The position numbers were made by a program, and so were the translations under genes. A model generated the notes under the pieces. That model worked only from the letters and a program-made list of their open reading frames with translations. It did not search any database and was not told the origin of the DNA. A DNA stretch of 64,000 nt from a virus (lineage: Duplodnaviria; Heunggongvirae; Uroviricota; Caudoviricetes), in IMG/VR virus record IMGVR_UViG_2565956614_000003; one strand, given 5' to 3'. The first letter of the stretch is position 1; each line of letters opens with the position of its first letter. Of the stretch, positions 5,540-46,236 are shown in pieces.

Positions 5540-8527
5540 ATGAGCTTAAGCGATCAGGTGGTAATGGCCACCAGCATAGAAACGCTGATCGAGCTGCTAA
5601 AAAACCTGCCCAATTACGGGCGGGTTTCGTATGTGGTGACAGCGAAGGGAGACGAGGTAAAAACAGCGTTTGATATCGTCGATGCCTCAGCTCTTTTGGT
5701 ATCCAATACTCTGGACGGGAAAATTAACCCTGACTATCCCCAGGAACTTCAGCCGCGCGACCGGACCCGCGCATCCAGTCTTCTTCAGGTCAACCAGATA
5801 TCCAAGGATTTGCGTCCTGCCCAGCTTACCGATTCCGGTTTATCCAGCCATGGCGCGCCGATAATTGGTGAGGACAATGCCGTTGAGTCAGGTAATGGAC
5901 GGACCATGGGGATCATCAAAGCCTATCAGGACGGCAATGCGGATCGGTATCGTGAGTACCTGATTGATCATGCGACCGAATTCGGCATACGACCTGAAAA
6001 GGTTGAATCAATGGCGGCTCCGGTACTGGTGCGCCGCCGGTTAACTAAGGTTGACCGCGTTCAGTTTGCCAAGGACTCAAATATTTCTGATCTTCAGGAA
6101 ATGGCAGCCAGTGAAAAGGCTTTTGTTGATGCCGACAGCATAACACCGGCGATGATGGCGCTTTTTAACCCGTCAGAAAGCGGAGATCTGCTTAGCCGCA
6201 GTAATGACACGTTTATTCGCGGATTTATGACGCAAGTTGGTGCCACACAGGCGGCTGGCCTTGTAACTGAAGATGGGCGACCAACACGGCAACTTGTAGA
6301 CCGTATACAAAACGCGATCTTTGCCAAGGCATATAAGGATGCGCGCCTGGTAAGGATGGTTGCAGAAGAACCTGATCCGGATATGCGTAATGTTCTGACG
6401 GCGCTTAATGCGGCAGCCAATGATTTTGTCCAGATGCAGGCTTTGTCAGGAGAAGCGCACAAGCAGGCTGTGACAACTATTGTTGATGGCATTGAGACAG
6501 CGGATAGCCTCGATAAAAAGGCGCTGGCGGCATTGAAAGATGCGGTAGACCTGGTAAGGCAATCGAAGGAGTTAGGCCAGCATATTACCGATGTTATTGC
6601 TCAGGGGGATATGTTCAGCGAAACGGCCCCGGAAGTGAAAGCACTCGCGTTGTTCATCGTCGCGAATAACCGTAGCGCGAAGCGTATGGCCACCGCCTTT
6701 AAGTTGATGGCGCAACGTATCAATGATGAGTTACAGCACCAGGGCCAGGCGCTCGGGGATATGTTTGGCGGCGGCGATGTGTCGTTACAGGATATCCTTC
6801 GCCAGGTGTCTCAGGAACTGGAAAACGAAGGCATGCAAGGGATATCCGGCGGTCTTTTCGAGTCCGTTTCCGGCGGTAGTTACAACGGTGTTGCTCCGTA
6901 TACCAGTTTGCTATTACATCGGGCATCCGGCATCAAAGACATTATTCATCTGATCAGGCTGCTTTCCCGCACAGATCCCCAGGATGAACAGCTTGTACAA
7001 GTGCTTGCGCATTTTGTTCGAATGCCTGTTGCCGACGTGAATAAATGGTGCCGATTATTCGGTATCAGCAATTCGTTACTTCGCGGATTGTTAAATCACG
7101 CATCCTCCCTTGGGCGCGACGGCTTTGATGAGATAGCGCAGGCGATACAAAACGGAGATATGCCACCAGCTATTGACTGGTTTTCCATTCGCCCAACCAG
7201 GGTGAAAGCATTCCTTAGCGCGGCGCATTCGGCATCACCATTGGCAGAAATGGTTCAGAGGTTGTCGCTCATATTCACAGACCATACCGCGTTGGGTGAT
7301 CTGACTCTGGACGAGATGAAAGAAGCCTCCATTCAGTGGGCCGATCAACAAAATGAGGTTAACTCAGACTTCTTGCCAGCATTCAGGAAGGCCGTTAGTA
7401 AAGCGGATGATTCCCGTGGAATTCTGAAGGCATTTAAGGCATTGCAAAGTCGGGTTAATAAACATGTCGGAGATATCGATGGGGTAACGGCGGAAGGCAG
7501 GGATATCCTTAAAGAGCACGGCATAACGCCAGAGTTTATTGATGAGATCAGGACGGATATGCAGCGTGAGGTCGTATCGTCCCTGCAAATTGTAGCCAGA
7601 GCGTTGGCGGATGCTAATCCGAAGAGTGCGGCCATTGTTAACCGGGTTATTGGTGATATTGAAGCATCGGAGGGCATGGGGGCGCTGAAACTCTTCCTTT
7701 CGCGAGCGTTTAATCCTAACGGCAATATTCTCCCTGGCATTATTGGTGAGGCTAAAAAGTATGTCAGTGAAGAAGAACTTGAGCAGCTTGACCAACTACT
7801 TAAGCGATTCTCATATAACCCGCAGACACGCTGGCAAATGAATCAGCGAAGTATGGGTTCGGTCCACGAGAAAGTGTTATCTGCCATGAACAGTGCGATC
7901 GCAAACTCATCCGTATCTGAAGAAAAAGCTCTTGAGTGGGCCGACTCTTTTATCACAGAAGAAGTGGAAGAAGCCCGCGCTGGACAGAATGGTGGGATAG
8001 ACCTGCGCAAGGAACTTGCTGATATTTATCGCCTGACCGGCGGGAAAATATCGACCTTATCAAAGGTAGTTCACCACCAGGGAAGGGCATATGCAAATCT
8101 AAATGGTGTTGTTGCTGTCAATTTGAACGATGAAAATGCAAGTGCACTGTGGCACGAGCTGGGTCATCATCTTGAGTACAGTAACCCCGGTTTGTTAGAG
8201 AAAGCCCGGTCATTCCTGAAGGCCAATGTTGAAGGGGATAAGCCATCTTTCGTCAATATCGGTGGGCGTGGCAAGCCTGAATGGTGCTTCAGATCTCGAT
8301 TGAGTAATATTTATATGGCGAAGGTATACCCGCCAGCCTCAGTAAGTAACACCGGGAAAATTCGGCAGAAATCACCGACTATTTCCAAAACGTCAGCAAC
8401 GGAAGTATTCTCTATGGCTCTTCAGTTGTATCATGACAAAGAGGCCGCTGCCGCATCACTGATGAATGGTGACGGATTGCTGGAACTGTTATTAGGTGTG
8501 GCAAAGGAGCTAAATAATGCAGATTAA
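5540..8527 (+). CDS. ddrB: DdrB, large Dar-operon head protein
   Basis: 995 aa; synteny and size match P1 ddrB. Confidence 0.75.
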   Translation: MSLSDQVVMATSIETLIELLKNLPNYGRVSYVVTAKGDEVKTAFDIVDASALLVSNTLDGKINPDYPQELQPRDRTRASSLLQVNQISKDLRPAQLTDSGLSSHGAPIIGEDNAVESGNGRTMGIIKAYQDGNADRYREYLIDHATEFGIRPEKVESMAAPVLVRRRLTKVDRVQFAKDSNISDLQEMAASEKAFVDADSITPAMMALFNPSESGDLLSRSNDTFIRGFMTQVGATQAAGLVTEDGRPTRQLVDRIQNAIFAKAYKDARLVRMVAEEPDPDMRNVLTALNAAANDFVQMQALSGEAHKQAVTTIVDGIETADSLDKKALAALKDAVDLVRQSKELGQHITDVIAQGDMFSETAPEVKALALFIVANNRSAKRMATAFKLMAQRINDELQHQGQALGDMFGGGDVSLQDILRQVSQELENEGMQGISGGLFESVSGGSYNGVAPYTSLLLHRASGIKDIIHLIRLLSRTDPQDEQLVQVLAHFVRMPVADVNKWCRLFGISNSLLRGLLNHASSLGRDGFDEIAQAIQNGDMPPAIDWFSIRPTRVKAFLSAAHSASPLAEMVQRLSLIFTDHTALGDLTLDEMKEASIQWADQQNEVNSDFLPAFRKAVSKADDSRGILKAFKALQSRVNKHVGDIDGVTAEGRDILKEHGITPEFIDEIRTDMQREVVSSLQIVARALADANPKSAAIVNRVIGDIEASEGMGALKLFLSRAFNPNGNILPGIIGEAKKYVSEEELEQLDQLLKRFSYNPQTRWQMNQRSMGSVHEKVLSAMNSAIANSSVSEEKALEWADSFITEEVEEARAGQNGGIDLRKELADIYRLTGGKISTLSKVVHHQGRAYANLNGVVAVNLNDENASALWHELGHHLEYSNPGLLEKARSFLKANVEGDKPSFVNIGGRGKPEWCFRSRLSNIYMAKVYPPASVSNTGKIRQKSPTISKTSATEVFSMALQLYHDKEAAAASLMNGDGLLELLLGVAKELNNAD

Positions 8528-8828
8528 AATCGCAGCGCCATTAGGCGGAGATGCCATTATCGAATTTGATGATAATGAAGAAGTTTCCGGGCGTTTAAGC
8601 ATTATCTCCGGTGACATTACCGAGGACATGATCGCTGAAGCCATAGCTGGGGCAAATCCCAATAGCTATATGGGATTCGTTAACACCCTTGATGCTCCCG
8701 CAAGTGATGTTCTCCGAACGCTGCATCTTTACGCTGGCTGGTTTGTTGATTGGCCAGCAGTAGATGGTGGCGATGAGGACGACGACGACGATGATTTTGG
8801 TGATCATGTAGACCAGATCGTATATTGA
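8517..8828 (+). CDS. Small acidic protein downstream of ddrB
   Basis: 103 aa ending in poly-Asp tract (GGDEDDDDDD); overlaps ddrB stop by 11 nt; terminator follows. Confidence 0.45.
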   Translation: MQIKIAAPLGGDAIIEFDDNEEVSGRLSIISGDITEDMIAEAIAGANPNSYMGFVNTLDAPASDVLRTLHLYAGWFVDWPAVDGGDEDDDDDDFGDHVDQIVY

Positions 8829-8830
8829 AG

Positions 8831-8860
8831 AAATCCCGCCAATCGGCGGGATTTTTTTTA
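8831..8860. terminator. Bidirectional rho-independent terminator (aaatcccgcc-aatc-ggcgggattttttt)
   Basis: Perfect 9-bp stem, 4-nt loop, T-run on + strand and A-run on the other side; between converging operons. Confidence 0.7.
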
Positions 8861-9640
8861 ATCGCTTTCCACTTCTTCCGTGGTGTTTTCTTGCAATTCT
8901 GTTAATGCAGCACGACATAGGTTCCGGGCATTGGCTATAGCTACACTTTTGACTTCATCCGTCATCGTGCAGGTAATGTACTGATCGAGTTCTTCAGCGC
9001 GGATGATGCTTTTGCCAATCAGAAACTGTATTTGCCATAGCAGATCGGCATCCATGATCAGAATTTCTGCCGGGCCTTCAGGGCCAGCCGGGAAGGAAAC
9101 ATAAGACTGTTTGCCCAGGCCGACAACTCGACAACTTGCTTCAAGAATTGCGCGCTTGAGGTCTGACTTTATAACGGAAACAGGTTGATTTTCACCAGTG
9201 ATTACGCCGTTGACATGGAAAGGCATGTAGCTTGAAATACGCTCTACTTTCCACACGCCAGCAAGCGATCCTTCATGCAGCACAATGGGGGTAACCGCGA
9301 GTTTCATCTCACCATATAACTGCTGGCAGATAGCTGGATTGCTGAATACATCTAAAGGCTCACATTCAAACAGCGGCGCAATCTGCATGAGGTCCATCAT
9401 GGTCATCCCTGGGGTACGAGCAGTAATGAATTTGCGCATACCAGTATCCATTGCGCTCCAGATTGCTACACCATGCTTTTTGCTCACTTCTTCAGTAAAG
9501 CCAAGGTGGCACATGATGGTTTTTTCGATAGCCAGATCAGAGATAGAAACCTTTTCGCCAGGTACTCCATCATTATTGATGGTCACTTCGACACTCTGGC
9601 CATTACGCAGGCGGTATTGAATTGCTTTAGTATTTTCCAC
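8858..9640 (-). CDS. Hypothetical protein, last gene of ssb operon
   Basis: 260 aa, protein-like composition, no recognised motif. Confidence 0.5.
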   Translation of the reverse strand: MENTKAIQYRLRNGQSVEVTINNDGVPGEKVSISDLAIEKTIMCHLGFTEEVSKKHGVAIWSAMDTGMRKFITARTPGMTMMDLMQIAPLFECEPLDVFSNPAICQQLYGEMKLAVTPIVLHEGSLAGVWKVERISSYMPFHVNGVITGENQPVSVIKSDLKRAILEASCRVVGLGKQSYVSFPAGPEGPAEILIMDADLLWQIQFLIGKSIIRAEELDQYITCTMTDEVKSVAIANARNLCRAALTELQENTTEEVESD

Positions 9641-9646
9641 GTTAAA

Positions 9647-10324
9647 TCACTCCACTACAAACCAGTCACATGCCAGTAAGTCGCCTACAGAAGGAACCCA
9701 CGGAACAACTACACCTTGTGCATTTTTTAAGGCGAAATAAGCACCATACGGAACGAGGTCGCCGGGGAAATATCCCTTAATGGCTTCCATTCGTGCCGGG
9801 TACTGTCCTTCAGGAACCAGCCAGCAGAATTGGTTTTCGCCGTTCCACCCGCGTCGAGCAACTTTCTTGCCATCCTTCAGCCACATCAGCGCGTCAGAAA
9901 AGTCGGCTGCTTCAAGGTCGATTTCTTCTTGTAGAGTAGCGATACCGCCAGCAGAAATAGTTACGTCCCTGGCTGTAATGAATGTCACCCCATTGTGACC
10001 TTCAATGCTGAGCGATACCCCATTTTCGAAGAAGTCGTTAGTCCGACTAAAGCCTTCTTCAAATGTTTTTTCTGGTGAATAGGACAGAGATCCGTCCTCA
10101 TAAGCGACCAGATATCCGCCAATTTCTGGTCGGTGTTTTTGCAAAAATATTTTATCAACATGGACTTTTACCCCTTCTGGCTCAACGACTTCGATGTTGC
10201 AAAAAAGGACCACATCCATTAGGGCGATAATTTCGATATCTTTGATTTTTGAGGCGCGAACTGTTTTATGGCTTTTGTATTTTGGAAGTGCCGTCAAAAG
10301 CTCTTTCGTTGTCATGTTATTCAT
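9647..10324 (-). CDS. Hypothetical protein with C-terminal DUF2829 (Tad2-like) domain; probable start MNNMTT at 10324 (longest ORF extends to 10492)
   Basis: C-terminal FSDALMWLKDGKKVARRGWNG...DLLACDWFVVE resembles DUF2829 signature; strong RBS gaggaaag before ATG at 10324. Confidence 0.5.
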   Translation of the reverse strand: MNNMTTKELLTALPKYKSHKTVRASKIKDIEIIALMDVVLFCNIEVVEPEGVKVHVDKIFLQKHRPEIGGYLVAYEDGSLSYSPEKTFEEGFSRTNDFFENGVSLSIEGHNGVTFITARDVTISAGGIATLQEEIDLEAADFSDALMWLKDGKKVARRGWNGENQFCWLVPEGQYPARMEAIKGYFPGDLVPYGAYFALKNAQGVVVPWVPSVGDLLACDWFVVE

Positions 10325-10521
10325 AGTCTTTCCTCTGCTTAAAACCTGATGTATTGCGCCTTCAGGTGGGGCAGGAATGTTTTCCCACCAGCGAACGCAA
10401 TATCTCGGGGTGTTCTTTTCGTGAAAAGCGTGTGCCATTGCCAACTTTGGCGTTTGTTTGCGAGTTCGTGCTTTTGTCGGCGTCTGGACCACCGCTTTTC
10501 TTTCAGTCGTTTTTTACACAT

Positions 10522-11010
10522 TCAAAACGGAATATCGTCGTCAAAGTCCATTGGAGGTTCGTTATTGGCGCTGCTCTGAGGTTTGCCGCCACCGCTGTAT
10601 TGCTGGTGGTTTTGAGGTTGGTTTGACTGCCCCCAGCCATTTGAGGACTGTGAATCGTCGCGGCGAGTGCCGATCATTTGCATGGTGCCGCCCTGGCTGA
10701 CGATAATTTCCGTCGTGTAACGTTCTACACCGGCGTCATCAGTCCACTTACGGGTTTTAAGTTTCCCTTCGATGTAGACCTGAGAACCTTTTCGTAAATA
10801 CTCACTCGCAATTTCAGCAAGTTTTCCGAACAAAACGACTTTATGCCATTCTGTTTGCTCTTTCTGTTGGCCCGTTTGCTTATCGCGCCATGATTCATTC
10901 GTTGCGATGCTGAGTCTTCCGACTGCGCCGCCATTTGGTATATACCTGATCTCCGGGTCTTGCCCCAGGGTACCAATCAGGATGACTTTGTTTACACCGC
11001 GTTGTGCCAC
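10522..11010 (-). CDS. ssb: Single-stranded DNA-binding protein
   Basis: 162 aa; OB-fold N-terminus close to E. coli SSB, Gly/Gln-rich linker, acidic C-terminal tail DFDDDIPF. Confidence 0.92.
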
Positions 11011-11029
11011 TTTTCTTACCTAATAAAAT

Positions 11030-11046
11030 AAATTAATTAGAGCAAT
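11030..11046 (-). promoter_or_regulatory. C1 repressor operator-like site (16/17 match to ATTGCTCTAATAAATTT) upstream of ssb
   Basis: aaattaattagagcaat in ssb/lyz divergent region. Confidence 0.6.
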
Positions 11047-11070
11047 AATGTATATCTTTGAAACGTGGCT

Positions 11071-11092
11071 AACAAGTGATTTGCATTATCCT
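11071..11092 (+). promoter_or_regulatory. Late-promoter-like element (aacaagtga-N7-tatcct) upstream of lyz
   Basis: Same 9-mer/7-bp spacer/TANNNT architecture recurs upstream of prt, pacA, mat and the baseplate-like block. Confidence 0.4.
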
Positions 11093-11179
11093 GTGCCTTC
11101 TAAAGGGATCGAGTCAGTCGGTATTGGCTGTGAATGAGTGTTTGTCCTGGAGCGTAAAAAATTCGCTTATGAGGTCTTT

Positions 11180-11737
11180 ATGAAGGGAAAAACAGCCGCA
11201 GGAGGCGGTGCAATTTGCGCTATCGCGGTGATGATTACCATCGTGATGGGTAATGGCAATGTGCGAACCAACCAGGCGGGGCTTGAGCTGATTGGTAACG
11301 CTGAAGGTTGCCGACGTGATCCATACATGTGCCCGGCGGGGGTATGGACTGACGGGATCGGTAATACACACGGGGTAACGCCGGGTGTGCGAAAAACCGA
11401 CCAGCAAATCGCCGCTGATTGGGAAAAGAATATCCTGATCGCTGAACGCTGTATTAATCAGCACTTTCGGGGCAAAGACATGCCCGATAATGCCTTCAGT
11501 GCAATGACAAGCGCGGCATTCAATATGGGATGCAATAGCTTACGGACCTACTACAGCAAAGCGCGAGGCATGCGAGTCGAAACGTCCATCCACAAGTGGG
11601 CGCAGAAAGGGGAATGGGTAAATATGTGTAACCATCTCCCTGATTTTGTGAACAGTAACGGCGTGCCCCTGCGAGGTTTAAAGATTCGCCGTGAAAAAGA
11701 ACGCCAGCTTTGCCTGACGGGGCTGATCAATGAATAA
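11180..11737 (+). CDS. lyz: SAR endolysin (lysozyme)
   Basis: Start MKGKTAAGGGAICAIAVMITIVMG (signal-anchor-release N-terminus) with RBS gagg; lysozyme catalytic region; longest ORF starts 42 nt earlier at 11138. Confidence 0.85.
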   Translation: MKGKTAAGGGAICAIAVMITIVMGNGNVRTNQAGLELIGNAEGCRRDPYMCPAGVWTDGIGNTHGVTPGVRKTDQQIAADWEKNILIAERCINQHFRGKDMPDNAFSAMTSAAFNMGCNSLRTYYSKARGMRVETSIHKWAQKGEWVNMCNHLPDFVNSNGVPLRGLKIRREKERQLCLTGLINE

Positions 11738-30969: not shown

Positions 30970-30986
30970 ATTGCTCTAATAAATTA
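30970..30986 (+). promoter_or_regulatory. C1 operator-like site (16/17) overlapping a TTGACA -35-like hexamer upstream of coi/c1
   Basis: ttgaca-attgctctaataaatta. Confidence 0.6.
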
Positions 30987-46219: not shown

Positions 46220-46236
46220 AGATTTATTAGAGCAAT
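46220..46236 (-). promoter_or_regulatory. C1 operator-like site (16/17)
   Basis: agatttattagagcaat, about 180 bp upstream of the 45313-46041 gene. Confidence 0.55.

Follow-up and report, generated by a model that had tools for sequence, protein, structure and literature searches.

A putative two-domain Tad2-family sponge in the ssb operon of a P1-like phage-plasmid

The window analyzed here, a 64,000-nucleotide (nt) stretch of DNA from a Caudoviricetes virus (IMG/VR record IMGVR_UViG_2565956614_000003), belongs to a P1-like phage-plasmid whose ssb operon carries, on the minus strand, a gene for a 225-amino-acid (aa) protein with a Tad2-like C-terminal domain. We propose that this gene (9647-10324, stop codon at 9647-9649) encodes an optional, early-expressed, two-domain sponge of the Tad2 family, shared by P1-like and D6-like phage-plasmids, whose likeliest targets are those of the characterized sponge ModTad2; we give this reading a probability of about 0.65. 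In the surrounding region (8500-11400), identity to Salmonella phage SJ46 stands at 98.8%, and P1, P7 and D6 align only in part. An original prediction, made from the DNA letters, had singled out two open reading frames (ORFs) downstream of ssb (8858-9640 and 9647-10324, minus strand) and had noted a likely signature of the domain of unknown function DUF2829 in the second. Both ORFs are present at these positions, the peptide strings quoted in support (FSDALMWLKDGKKVARRGWNG ... DLLACDWFVVE) occur in the 225-aa ORF, and the gene upstream of both is ssb (PF00436, E 7e-40).

A Tad2-family domain and its nearest characterized relative

A hidden Markov model search bears out the suggested signature, with positions 2-73 of the 73-position PF11195 (DUF2829) profile matching residues 141-224 of the 225-aa protein above cut-off (E 1.6e-22; 80.2 bits, cut-off 25). 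The match lies within a C-terminal domain of residues 138-225 (9650-9913, minus strand), and comparison with Tad2, which the original prediction had proposed, finds in this domain the Tad2 fold of an N-terminal helix and an antiparallel beta sheet with an insertion. When the protein was compared with PDB sequences using phmmer, ModTad2 (8V3E, 9EIB) was matched at 6e-20, HgmTad2 (AcrIIA7) at 4e-10 and SPO1 Tad2 at 7e-9. Residues W160, N161, G162, W209, S212 and D215 align with W21, N22, G23, W87, S90 and D93 of HgmTad2 and with W25, N26, G27, W73, S76 and D79 of ModTad2. Li et al. described the HgmTad2 residues that hold an ADP-ribose (ADPR)-type ligand, which include the W-N-G loop and the W..S..D stretch; in the 225-aa protein the W..S..D motif stands before the last helix. 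By sequence, fold and conserved pocket residues, the C-terminal domain belongs to the Tad2 family. Neither this domain nor the OB domain occurs a second time in the window.

The suggested link to Tad2 stands as family membership, but the nearest characterized relative is ModTad2, a sponge for type II Thoeris and Pycsar signals, rather than SPO1 Tad2, whose target is type I Thoeris. ModTad2 (also MoTad2), from a Myroides odoratus prophage, binds His-ADPR and inhibits type II Thoeris, and its second pocket binds cUMP/cCMP, through which Pycsar is inhibited (bioRxiv 10.1101/2024.01.03.573942; PMC12393519); type I and type IV Thoeris are not inhibited by it. The insertion between beta2 and beta5 has the same length in ModTad2 and in the 225-aa protein. 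Ligand binding by ModTad2 is experimental, whereas the protein described here is compared with it by sequence, at about 45-50% identity, a level from which ligand specificity cannot be read off. ModTad2 is also a single domain of 89 aa, whereas the present protein carries an extra OB domain and a linker. SPO1 Tad2 and HgmTad2 belong to the same Pfam family, with the same fold and the same core residues in their canonical ADPR pocket, but they are far weaker sequence matches, and the residues with which HgmTad2 binds cyclic dinucleotides (R31, D34, S47, N85) are not conserved in the 225-aa protein.

The extent of the protein depends on its start codon. The mechanical ORF (9647-10492, minus strand) begins at a GTG and comprises 281 aa, whereas an internal ATG at 10324 gives 225 aa. 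Public annotation follows the upstream GTG, yielding a 281-aa DUF2829 protein in SJ46 (gp048) and an IsaA of 320 aa in P1 (NC_005856). The ATG is preceded by the ribosome-binding site (RBS) GAGGAAAG at 10328-10335, and homologues begin MNNM(A/T)TKEL, at the equivalent of this ATG. Across 19 related loci, the variable sites of the 56-codon upstream extension are non-synonymous in 17 cases and synonymous in two, fall mostly on codon positions 1 and 2, and are accompanied by in-frame stops in some relatives. Because of the non-synonymous excess and the in-frame stops, the extension is judged not to be coding; the GTG at 10492, used for the 281-aa and 320-aa annotations, was rejected, and the true start is the ATG at 10324. 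By the same substitution pattern and in-frame stops, the 197 nt between ssb and this ATG (10325-10521, minus strand) form a non-coding spacer, which is well conserved despite being non-coding.

The N-terminal OB domain and its fusion partners

The original prediction recognized the Tad2-like C-terminus but overlooked the N-terminal half of the protein, which forms a separate, Dec-like OB-fold domain (residues 4-97; 10034-10315, minus strand). A linker of ~40 aa (residues 98-137; 9914-10033, minus strand) with beta-strand-like repeats NGVSLSIEGHNGVTFITARDVTISAGGIATLQ joins the two domains; it is conserved among homologues, and its predicted local distance difference test (pLDDT) score is <50 in the monomer model. 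The protein is thus not a short single domain of about 90-100 aa, and multi-domain Tad2 proteins are already known (Tal et al., 10.1101/2025.07.12.664507). In known sponge fusions, such as the Acb4-Tad2 protein of Pasteurella phage Pm86 and the Tad2-PF21825 "Sequestin" proteins, a Tad2 domain is likewise linked to a second small phage domain, and relatives of the 225-aa protein also carry PF21825. The partner domain here differs in being a Dec-like OB domain, which falls outside the sponge families described as of April 2026.

The OB-domain profile matches the decoration protein Dec of phage L (PDB 6E3C) with the same topology, although the sequence match is weak (E 1.7e-4). The two share the order of strands and helices and the motif KPxxGGYL...AFExxY, and each has, after its OB fold, a stretch of about 40-45 residues without order in the monomer; the linker may resemble the trimeric beta-helix stalk of Dec. 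Dec lacks, however, an H-K pair that is invariant in the OB family, and it is a late virion protein, whereas the 225-aa gene is part of an early operon.

When 5.8 billion proteins were searched with a profile, 115 new OB-family members were listed. Across a set of 116 sequences, conservation is 97% or higher at ~20 positions, among them H19, K20 and Y71, while K26 and H64 are conserved at 90-91%; the signature reads YKxHK...KHxPxxGGYxVxYxDGYxSxSPxxxFExGY. Most members are stand-alone early phage proteins of 80-100 aa (79 of the 115 have at most 125 aa). Among the 33 members of at least 150 aa, 20 carry a known sponge domain, namely PF21825 (Sequestin; 8), PF24729 (Acb2/Tad1 hairpin; 7), PF11195 (Tad2; 4) or PF13876 (Acb4 family; 1), and triple fusions of OB, Tad2 and PF21825 exist among the homologues. 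For the other 13, the part outside the OB domain gave no Pfam match. Partners of this kind, attached at the C- or N-terminus (P0185, P0224, P0261, P0271/P0275, P0240, P0258, P0259 and P0270), show no mutual similarity except for the pair P0271/P0275, and by the logic of fusion they are candidates for further anti-defence modules. A stand-alone OB gene encoding 87 aa was also seen on unrelated phage metagenome contigs (L064-L067), among small early genes and two genes upstream of an SSB gene, an arrangement that echoes the ssb-adjacent position in the window.

Fusion has revealed sponge families before, in that Sequestin was found because PF21825 is fused to Tad2 and Acb4 (Tal et al., 10.1101/2025.07.12.664507). 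The OB domain follows the same pattern, being fused to four unrelated sponge families, and by this guilt by fusion it is probably a second anti-defence or accessory module rather than a capsid-binding domain. That it is an undescribed anti-defence module in its own right, whether as a new family of sponges or as a partner to sponges in general, is a more tentative idea, and if it were true the other OB fusion partners and IsaA, the product of the next gene, could be further anti-defence proteins. A 2026 paper lists the sponge families Tad1, Tad2, Acb2, Acb4, Sequestin and Lockin together with its own TadIV-1, and in the literature no paper was found that ties an OB fold to sponges. The possibility that the OB domain is Lockin was considered and rejected, since Lockin has no members in INPHARED genomes, whereas the OB family does. 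The wider value of the present protein may lie in its N-terminal half: it represents a large family that is joined to four known sponge families and that published screens have set aside, and which could prove to be a further kind of sponge or reveal how sponges receive help.

Proposed function and its alternatives

We hypothesize that the Tad2 domain forms a tetramer, as solved Tad2 proteins do; this is its most likely assembly by analogy. The tetramer would sequester an ADPR-derived signal made by TIR-domain defence proteins, such that the effector is never switched on, while the OB domain, tied to the Tad2 domain by the flexible ~40-aa linker, would act as a second anti-defence or accessory module. 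Because ModTad2 is the nearest characterized relative, the most likely ligands by kinship are His-ADPR, the signal of type II Thoeris, and cUMP/cCMP, the signals of Pycsar. P1-like and D6-like phage-plasmids are common in Escherichia coli, Shigella and Salmonella, and an active sponge would aid their infection of, or persistence in, hosts with TIR-based or cyclic-nucleotide-based immunity.

A number of points weigh against this proposal. The ligand range of Tad2 homologues varies widely, which makes His-ADPR a guess. Among relatives of the OB domain, only a capsid decoration protein has a solved structure, and in the screen of Hadary et al. sponge homologues with PF21825 or a 6E3C-like domain were deliberately removed, from which it follows that the OB-Tad2 architecture was already known to exist. 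D6 orf114 (L068:3550-3990) and its counterpart in locus L004 (3554-3994) encode a 146-aa form in which an in-frame deletion has removed the OB core, so that residues 1-20 are followed by the linker and the Tad2 domain. In addition, a P1-like IMG/VR contig (L035:2409-3991) carries an IS3-family element with two transposase ORFs inside the Tad2 domain; together, the OB-less variants and this natural knock-out indicate that the gene is dispensable. The neighboring isaA is likewise non-essential in P1 by a CRISPR interference (CRISPRi) screen (PMC10695390).

Of the alternatives, a sponge for another signal is plausible, if rather unlikely. Candidate ligands are 3'cADPR or 2'cADPR (type I, V and VI Thoeris), N7-cADPR (type IV), cADPR (types VII and VIII) and the cyclic dinucleotides of CBASS. 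As a group, Tad2 homologues block CBASS, Pycsar and type I, II and IV Thoeris, single proteins often several of these; the canonical pocket core of the 225-aa protein is shared with HgmTad2, a gcADPR binder; and type IV Thoeris is present in E. coli. The homologues also fall into three Tad2-domain alleles (about 100%, 75% and 62% identical to the domain here). Their differences lie chiefly in the beta2-beta5 insertion that builds the second pocket, and in the third and shortest allele the ligand loop reads W-K-G in place of W-N-G. The sequence is, however, ten orders of magnitude nearer to ModTad2 than to any other solved Tad2, and ModTad2 is inactive against type I and type IV Thoeris, and the residues with which HgmTad2 holds cyclic dinucleotides are not conserved.

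The resemblance to Dec in profile and topology, the linker that is disordered in the monomer model like the stalk of Dec, and a single relative (P0023) with a tail-fibre repeat would suit a virion decoration or fibre-like protein, in which the OB domain binds the capsid, the linker forms a trimeric beta-helix stalk and the Tad2-like domain sits at the tip. We consider this improbable, as the gene does not occupy a late position but lies in the C1-controlled early ssb operon, on a strand for which P1 annotates no late promoter. Its relatives are also found in early regions, with the D6 copy standing between dut and isaA, near cre, and stand-alone OB genes residing in early replication regions. 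Moreover, reference P1 and most of the P1-like plasmids sampled lack the gene, Dec is without the invariant H-K pair, and the fusion partners of the OB family are intracellular sponges. An anti-CRISPR of the AcrIIA7 type, an idea that derives from the first linkage of DUF2829 to Cas9 inhibition, is less probable still and can be given very little weight. E. coli has CRISPR-Cas systems of type I and is not known to have type II. Li et al., in turn, failed to reproduce Cas9 inhibition by HgmTad2 or its homologues. The two-domain sponge with the targets of ModTad2 remains the reading we prefer.

Operon structure, mosaic evolution and neighboring genes

The operon begins with ssb (162 aa; 10522-11010, minus strand), whose product is 99% identical to P1 Ssb. 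The 17-mer ATTGCTCTAATTAATTT at 11030-11046 (minus strand) lies 20 nt upstream of the ssb start and overlaps the ssb promoters; it differs by one mismatch from the C1 repressor operator consensus. Scored in this way, the window contains 14 operator-like 17-mers against 0.33 expected. The site stands at the position of the annotated Ossb/Op21 of P1, and region 10321-11200, with operator, promoters and ssb, is 97.6% identical to P1, so that the C1 operator and operon layout claimed by the original prediction agree with annotated P1. A GC-rich hairpin at 8831-8854, flanked by T runs on both sides, would act as a bidirectional terminator between the ssb operon and the ddrB-hxr operon; RNA folding gave -17.1 kcal/mol (z -2.8) for the minus strand and -22.6 kcal/mol (z -5.1) for the plus strand. 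A simple terminator scan had overlooked this hairpin; the same scan found no minus-strand terminator in the ssb-to-ATG spacer (10325-10521), and an Rfam scan of 8400-11400 gave only sub-threshold matches, caused by the terminator. From the operator, the lack of an internal terminator, the hairpin after isaA and the position of the isaA RBS (GGAG, 9650-9653) within the 3' end of the Tad2-like gene, we infer that ssb, the 225-aa gene and isaA are co-transcribed and repressed by C1. Upon infection or induction, lifting of C1 repression would then release all three genes from the ssb promoters.

Compared with P1, the 225-aa gene is a clean, gene-sized insertion or deletion, since 684 bases that are absent from P1 stand between matching flanks: the window matches P1 down to 10321, which includes the ATG plus one base, and the match resumes at 9636 and runs through isaA. 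The Tad2-like gene thereby occupies the RBS and ATG that serve isaA in P1, where the order is ssb-isaA-IS1-isaB-hxr. Of the two cargo genes originally proposed, this one can be kept as cargo, whereas the other (260 aa; 8858-9640, minus strand, GTG start) is the homologue of P1 isaA, with 93.8% DNA identity. The interval had also been called a variable spot holding isaB and hxr in P1, which holds true, but the insertion sequence there is IS1 and not IS5; downstream of isaA the window has only the hairpin, against IS1 and isaB in P1. Variability extends to P7, where (L003) an outer-membrane porin gene, nmpC, stands between ssb and odaA/hxr in place of the Tad2-like gene and isaA, and in Venturini et al. 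(PMC6906374) the interval figures among the recombination hot spots, as RD-2.

Comparison of 60 IMG/VR loci, retrieved through IsaA, shows the tad2-like and isaA pair in two settings, P1-like (ssb-tad2-isaA-hxr) and D6-like (dut-tad2-isaA), with isaA starting at the same distance behind the Tad2 domain in both. The DNA of one D6-like locus (L013) is 100% identical to the window over 9681-9920, whereas the OB domain shows 65-87% identity and isaA 40-68%, and phage D6 matches the region solely at 9598-9969 (97.3%), a recombination tract common to D6-like phage-plasmids that comprises the Tad2 domain, the isaA RBS and the isaA start. Given complete identity inside and flanks of 40-70% identity between P1-like and D6-like elements, sequence comparison points to a recent transfer of the Tad2 segment, together with the isaA RBS, between the P1-like and D6-like lineages. 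An identical segment in two otherwise diverged lineages implies that the Tad2 domain is swapped as a unit. The two domains are correspondingly uncoupled among homologues, with Tad2 domains that are 100% identical joined to OB domains at 54% and OB domains at 92% joined to Tad2 domains at 75%. One of the three alleles, allele B, is found in P1-like as well as D6-like elements (alleles: P0003, P0046 and relatives). A dUTPase-Tad2 fusion in L004 and D6 was considered and rejected, as dut and the Tad2-like gene are separate ORFs there; a true fusion of this type (P0056, 241 aa) exists elsewhere.

Among these 60 loci, many of the P1-like and some of the D6-like ones lack the gene. Coverage of the 2.9-kb region is 80% or higher in 106 of the 628 matching PLSDB plasmids, and about 4% of complete E. 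coli genomes (213 of 5,426) carry the gene or a close relative, with 213 of 220 placements on plasmids, nearly always of about 90-100 kb. Together with the clean indel and the identical Tad2 segment, this distribution speaks for an optional gene under selection. RefSeq names the product "DUF2829 domain-containing protein". A 2025 preprint that applied DefenseFinder to phage-plasmids reported "Tad2 AcrIIA7 (anti-Thoeris)" at frequencies of 56% among P1-like elements and 93% among D6-like ones (10.1101/2025.09.12.675607); the presence of a Tad2-family gene in P1-like elements is therefore not new.

The 260-aa protein is a full-length homologue of P1 IsaA (gp017; 94% protein identity by tblastn), and whereas the original prediction could assign it no function, which still holds, it does bear a name. 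The protein matches phrog_2326 (E 2e-149), which has no known function, and a profile search of 1.84 billion representatives gave 35 clusters, all of about 245-313 aa, that share the motifs NGxLxGxW and ELDxY. No matches to IsaA were found in Pfam, NCBIfam, PADLOC or PDB, including with a 20-sequence profile, and its AlphaFold2 (AF2) model was unreliable (mean pLDDT 45.7), so that a Foldseek search with it, which gave nothing below E 0.4, was disregarded. The early gene isaA is conserved and stands next to the Tad2-like gene in both lineages, a position compatible with an anti-defence role.

On the opposite strand, the end of the Dar anti-restriction operon converges tail-to-tail on the ssb operon, with ddrB at 5540-8527 (plus strand; PF18763 ddrB-ParB, E 3e-39, and P1 annotation) followed by hxr at 8517-8828 (plus strand; P1 annotation). 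Other C1 operator-like sites in the window include those at 30970-30986, 46220-46236 and 62415-62431, and at 62404-62431 two such sites overlap on opposite strands.

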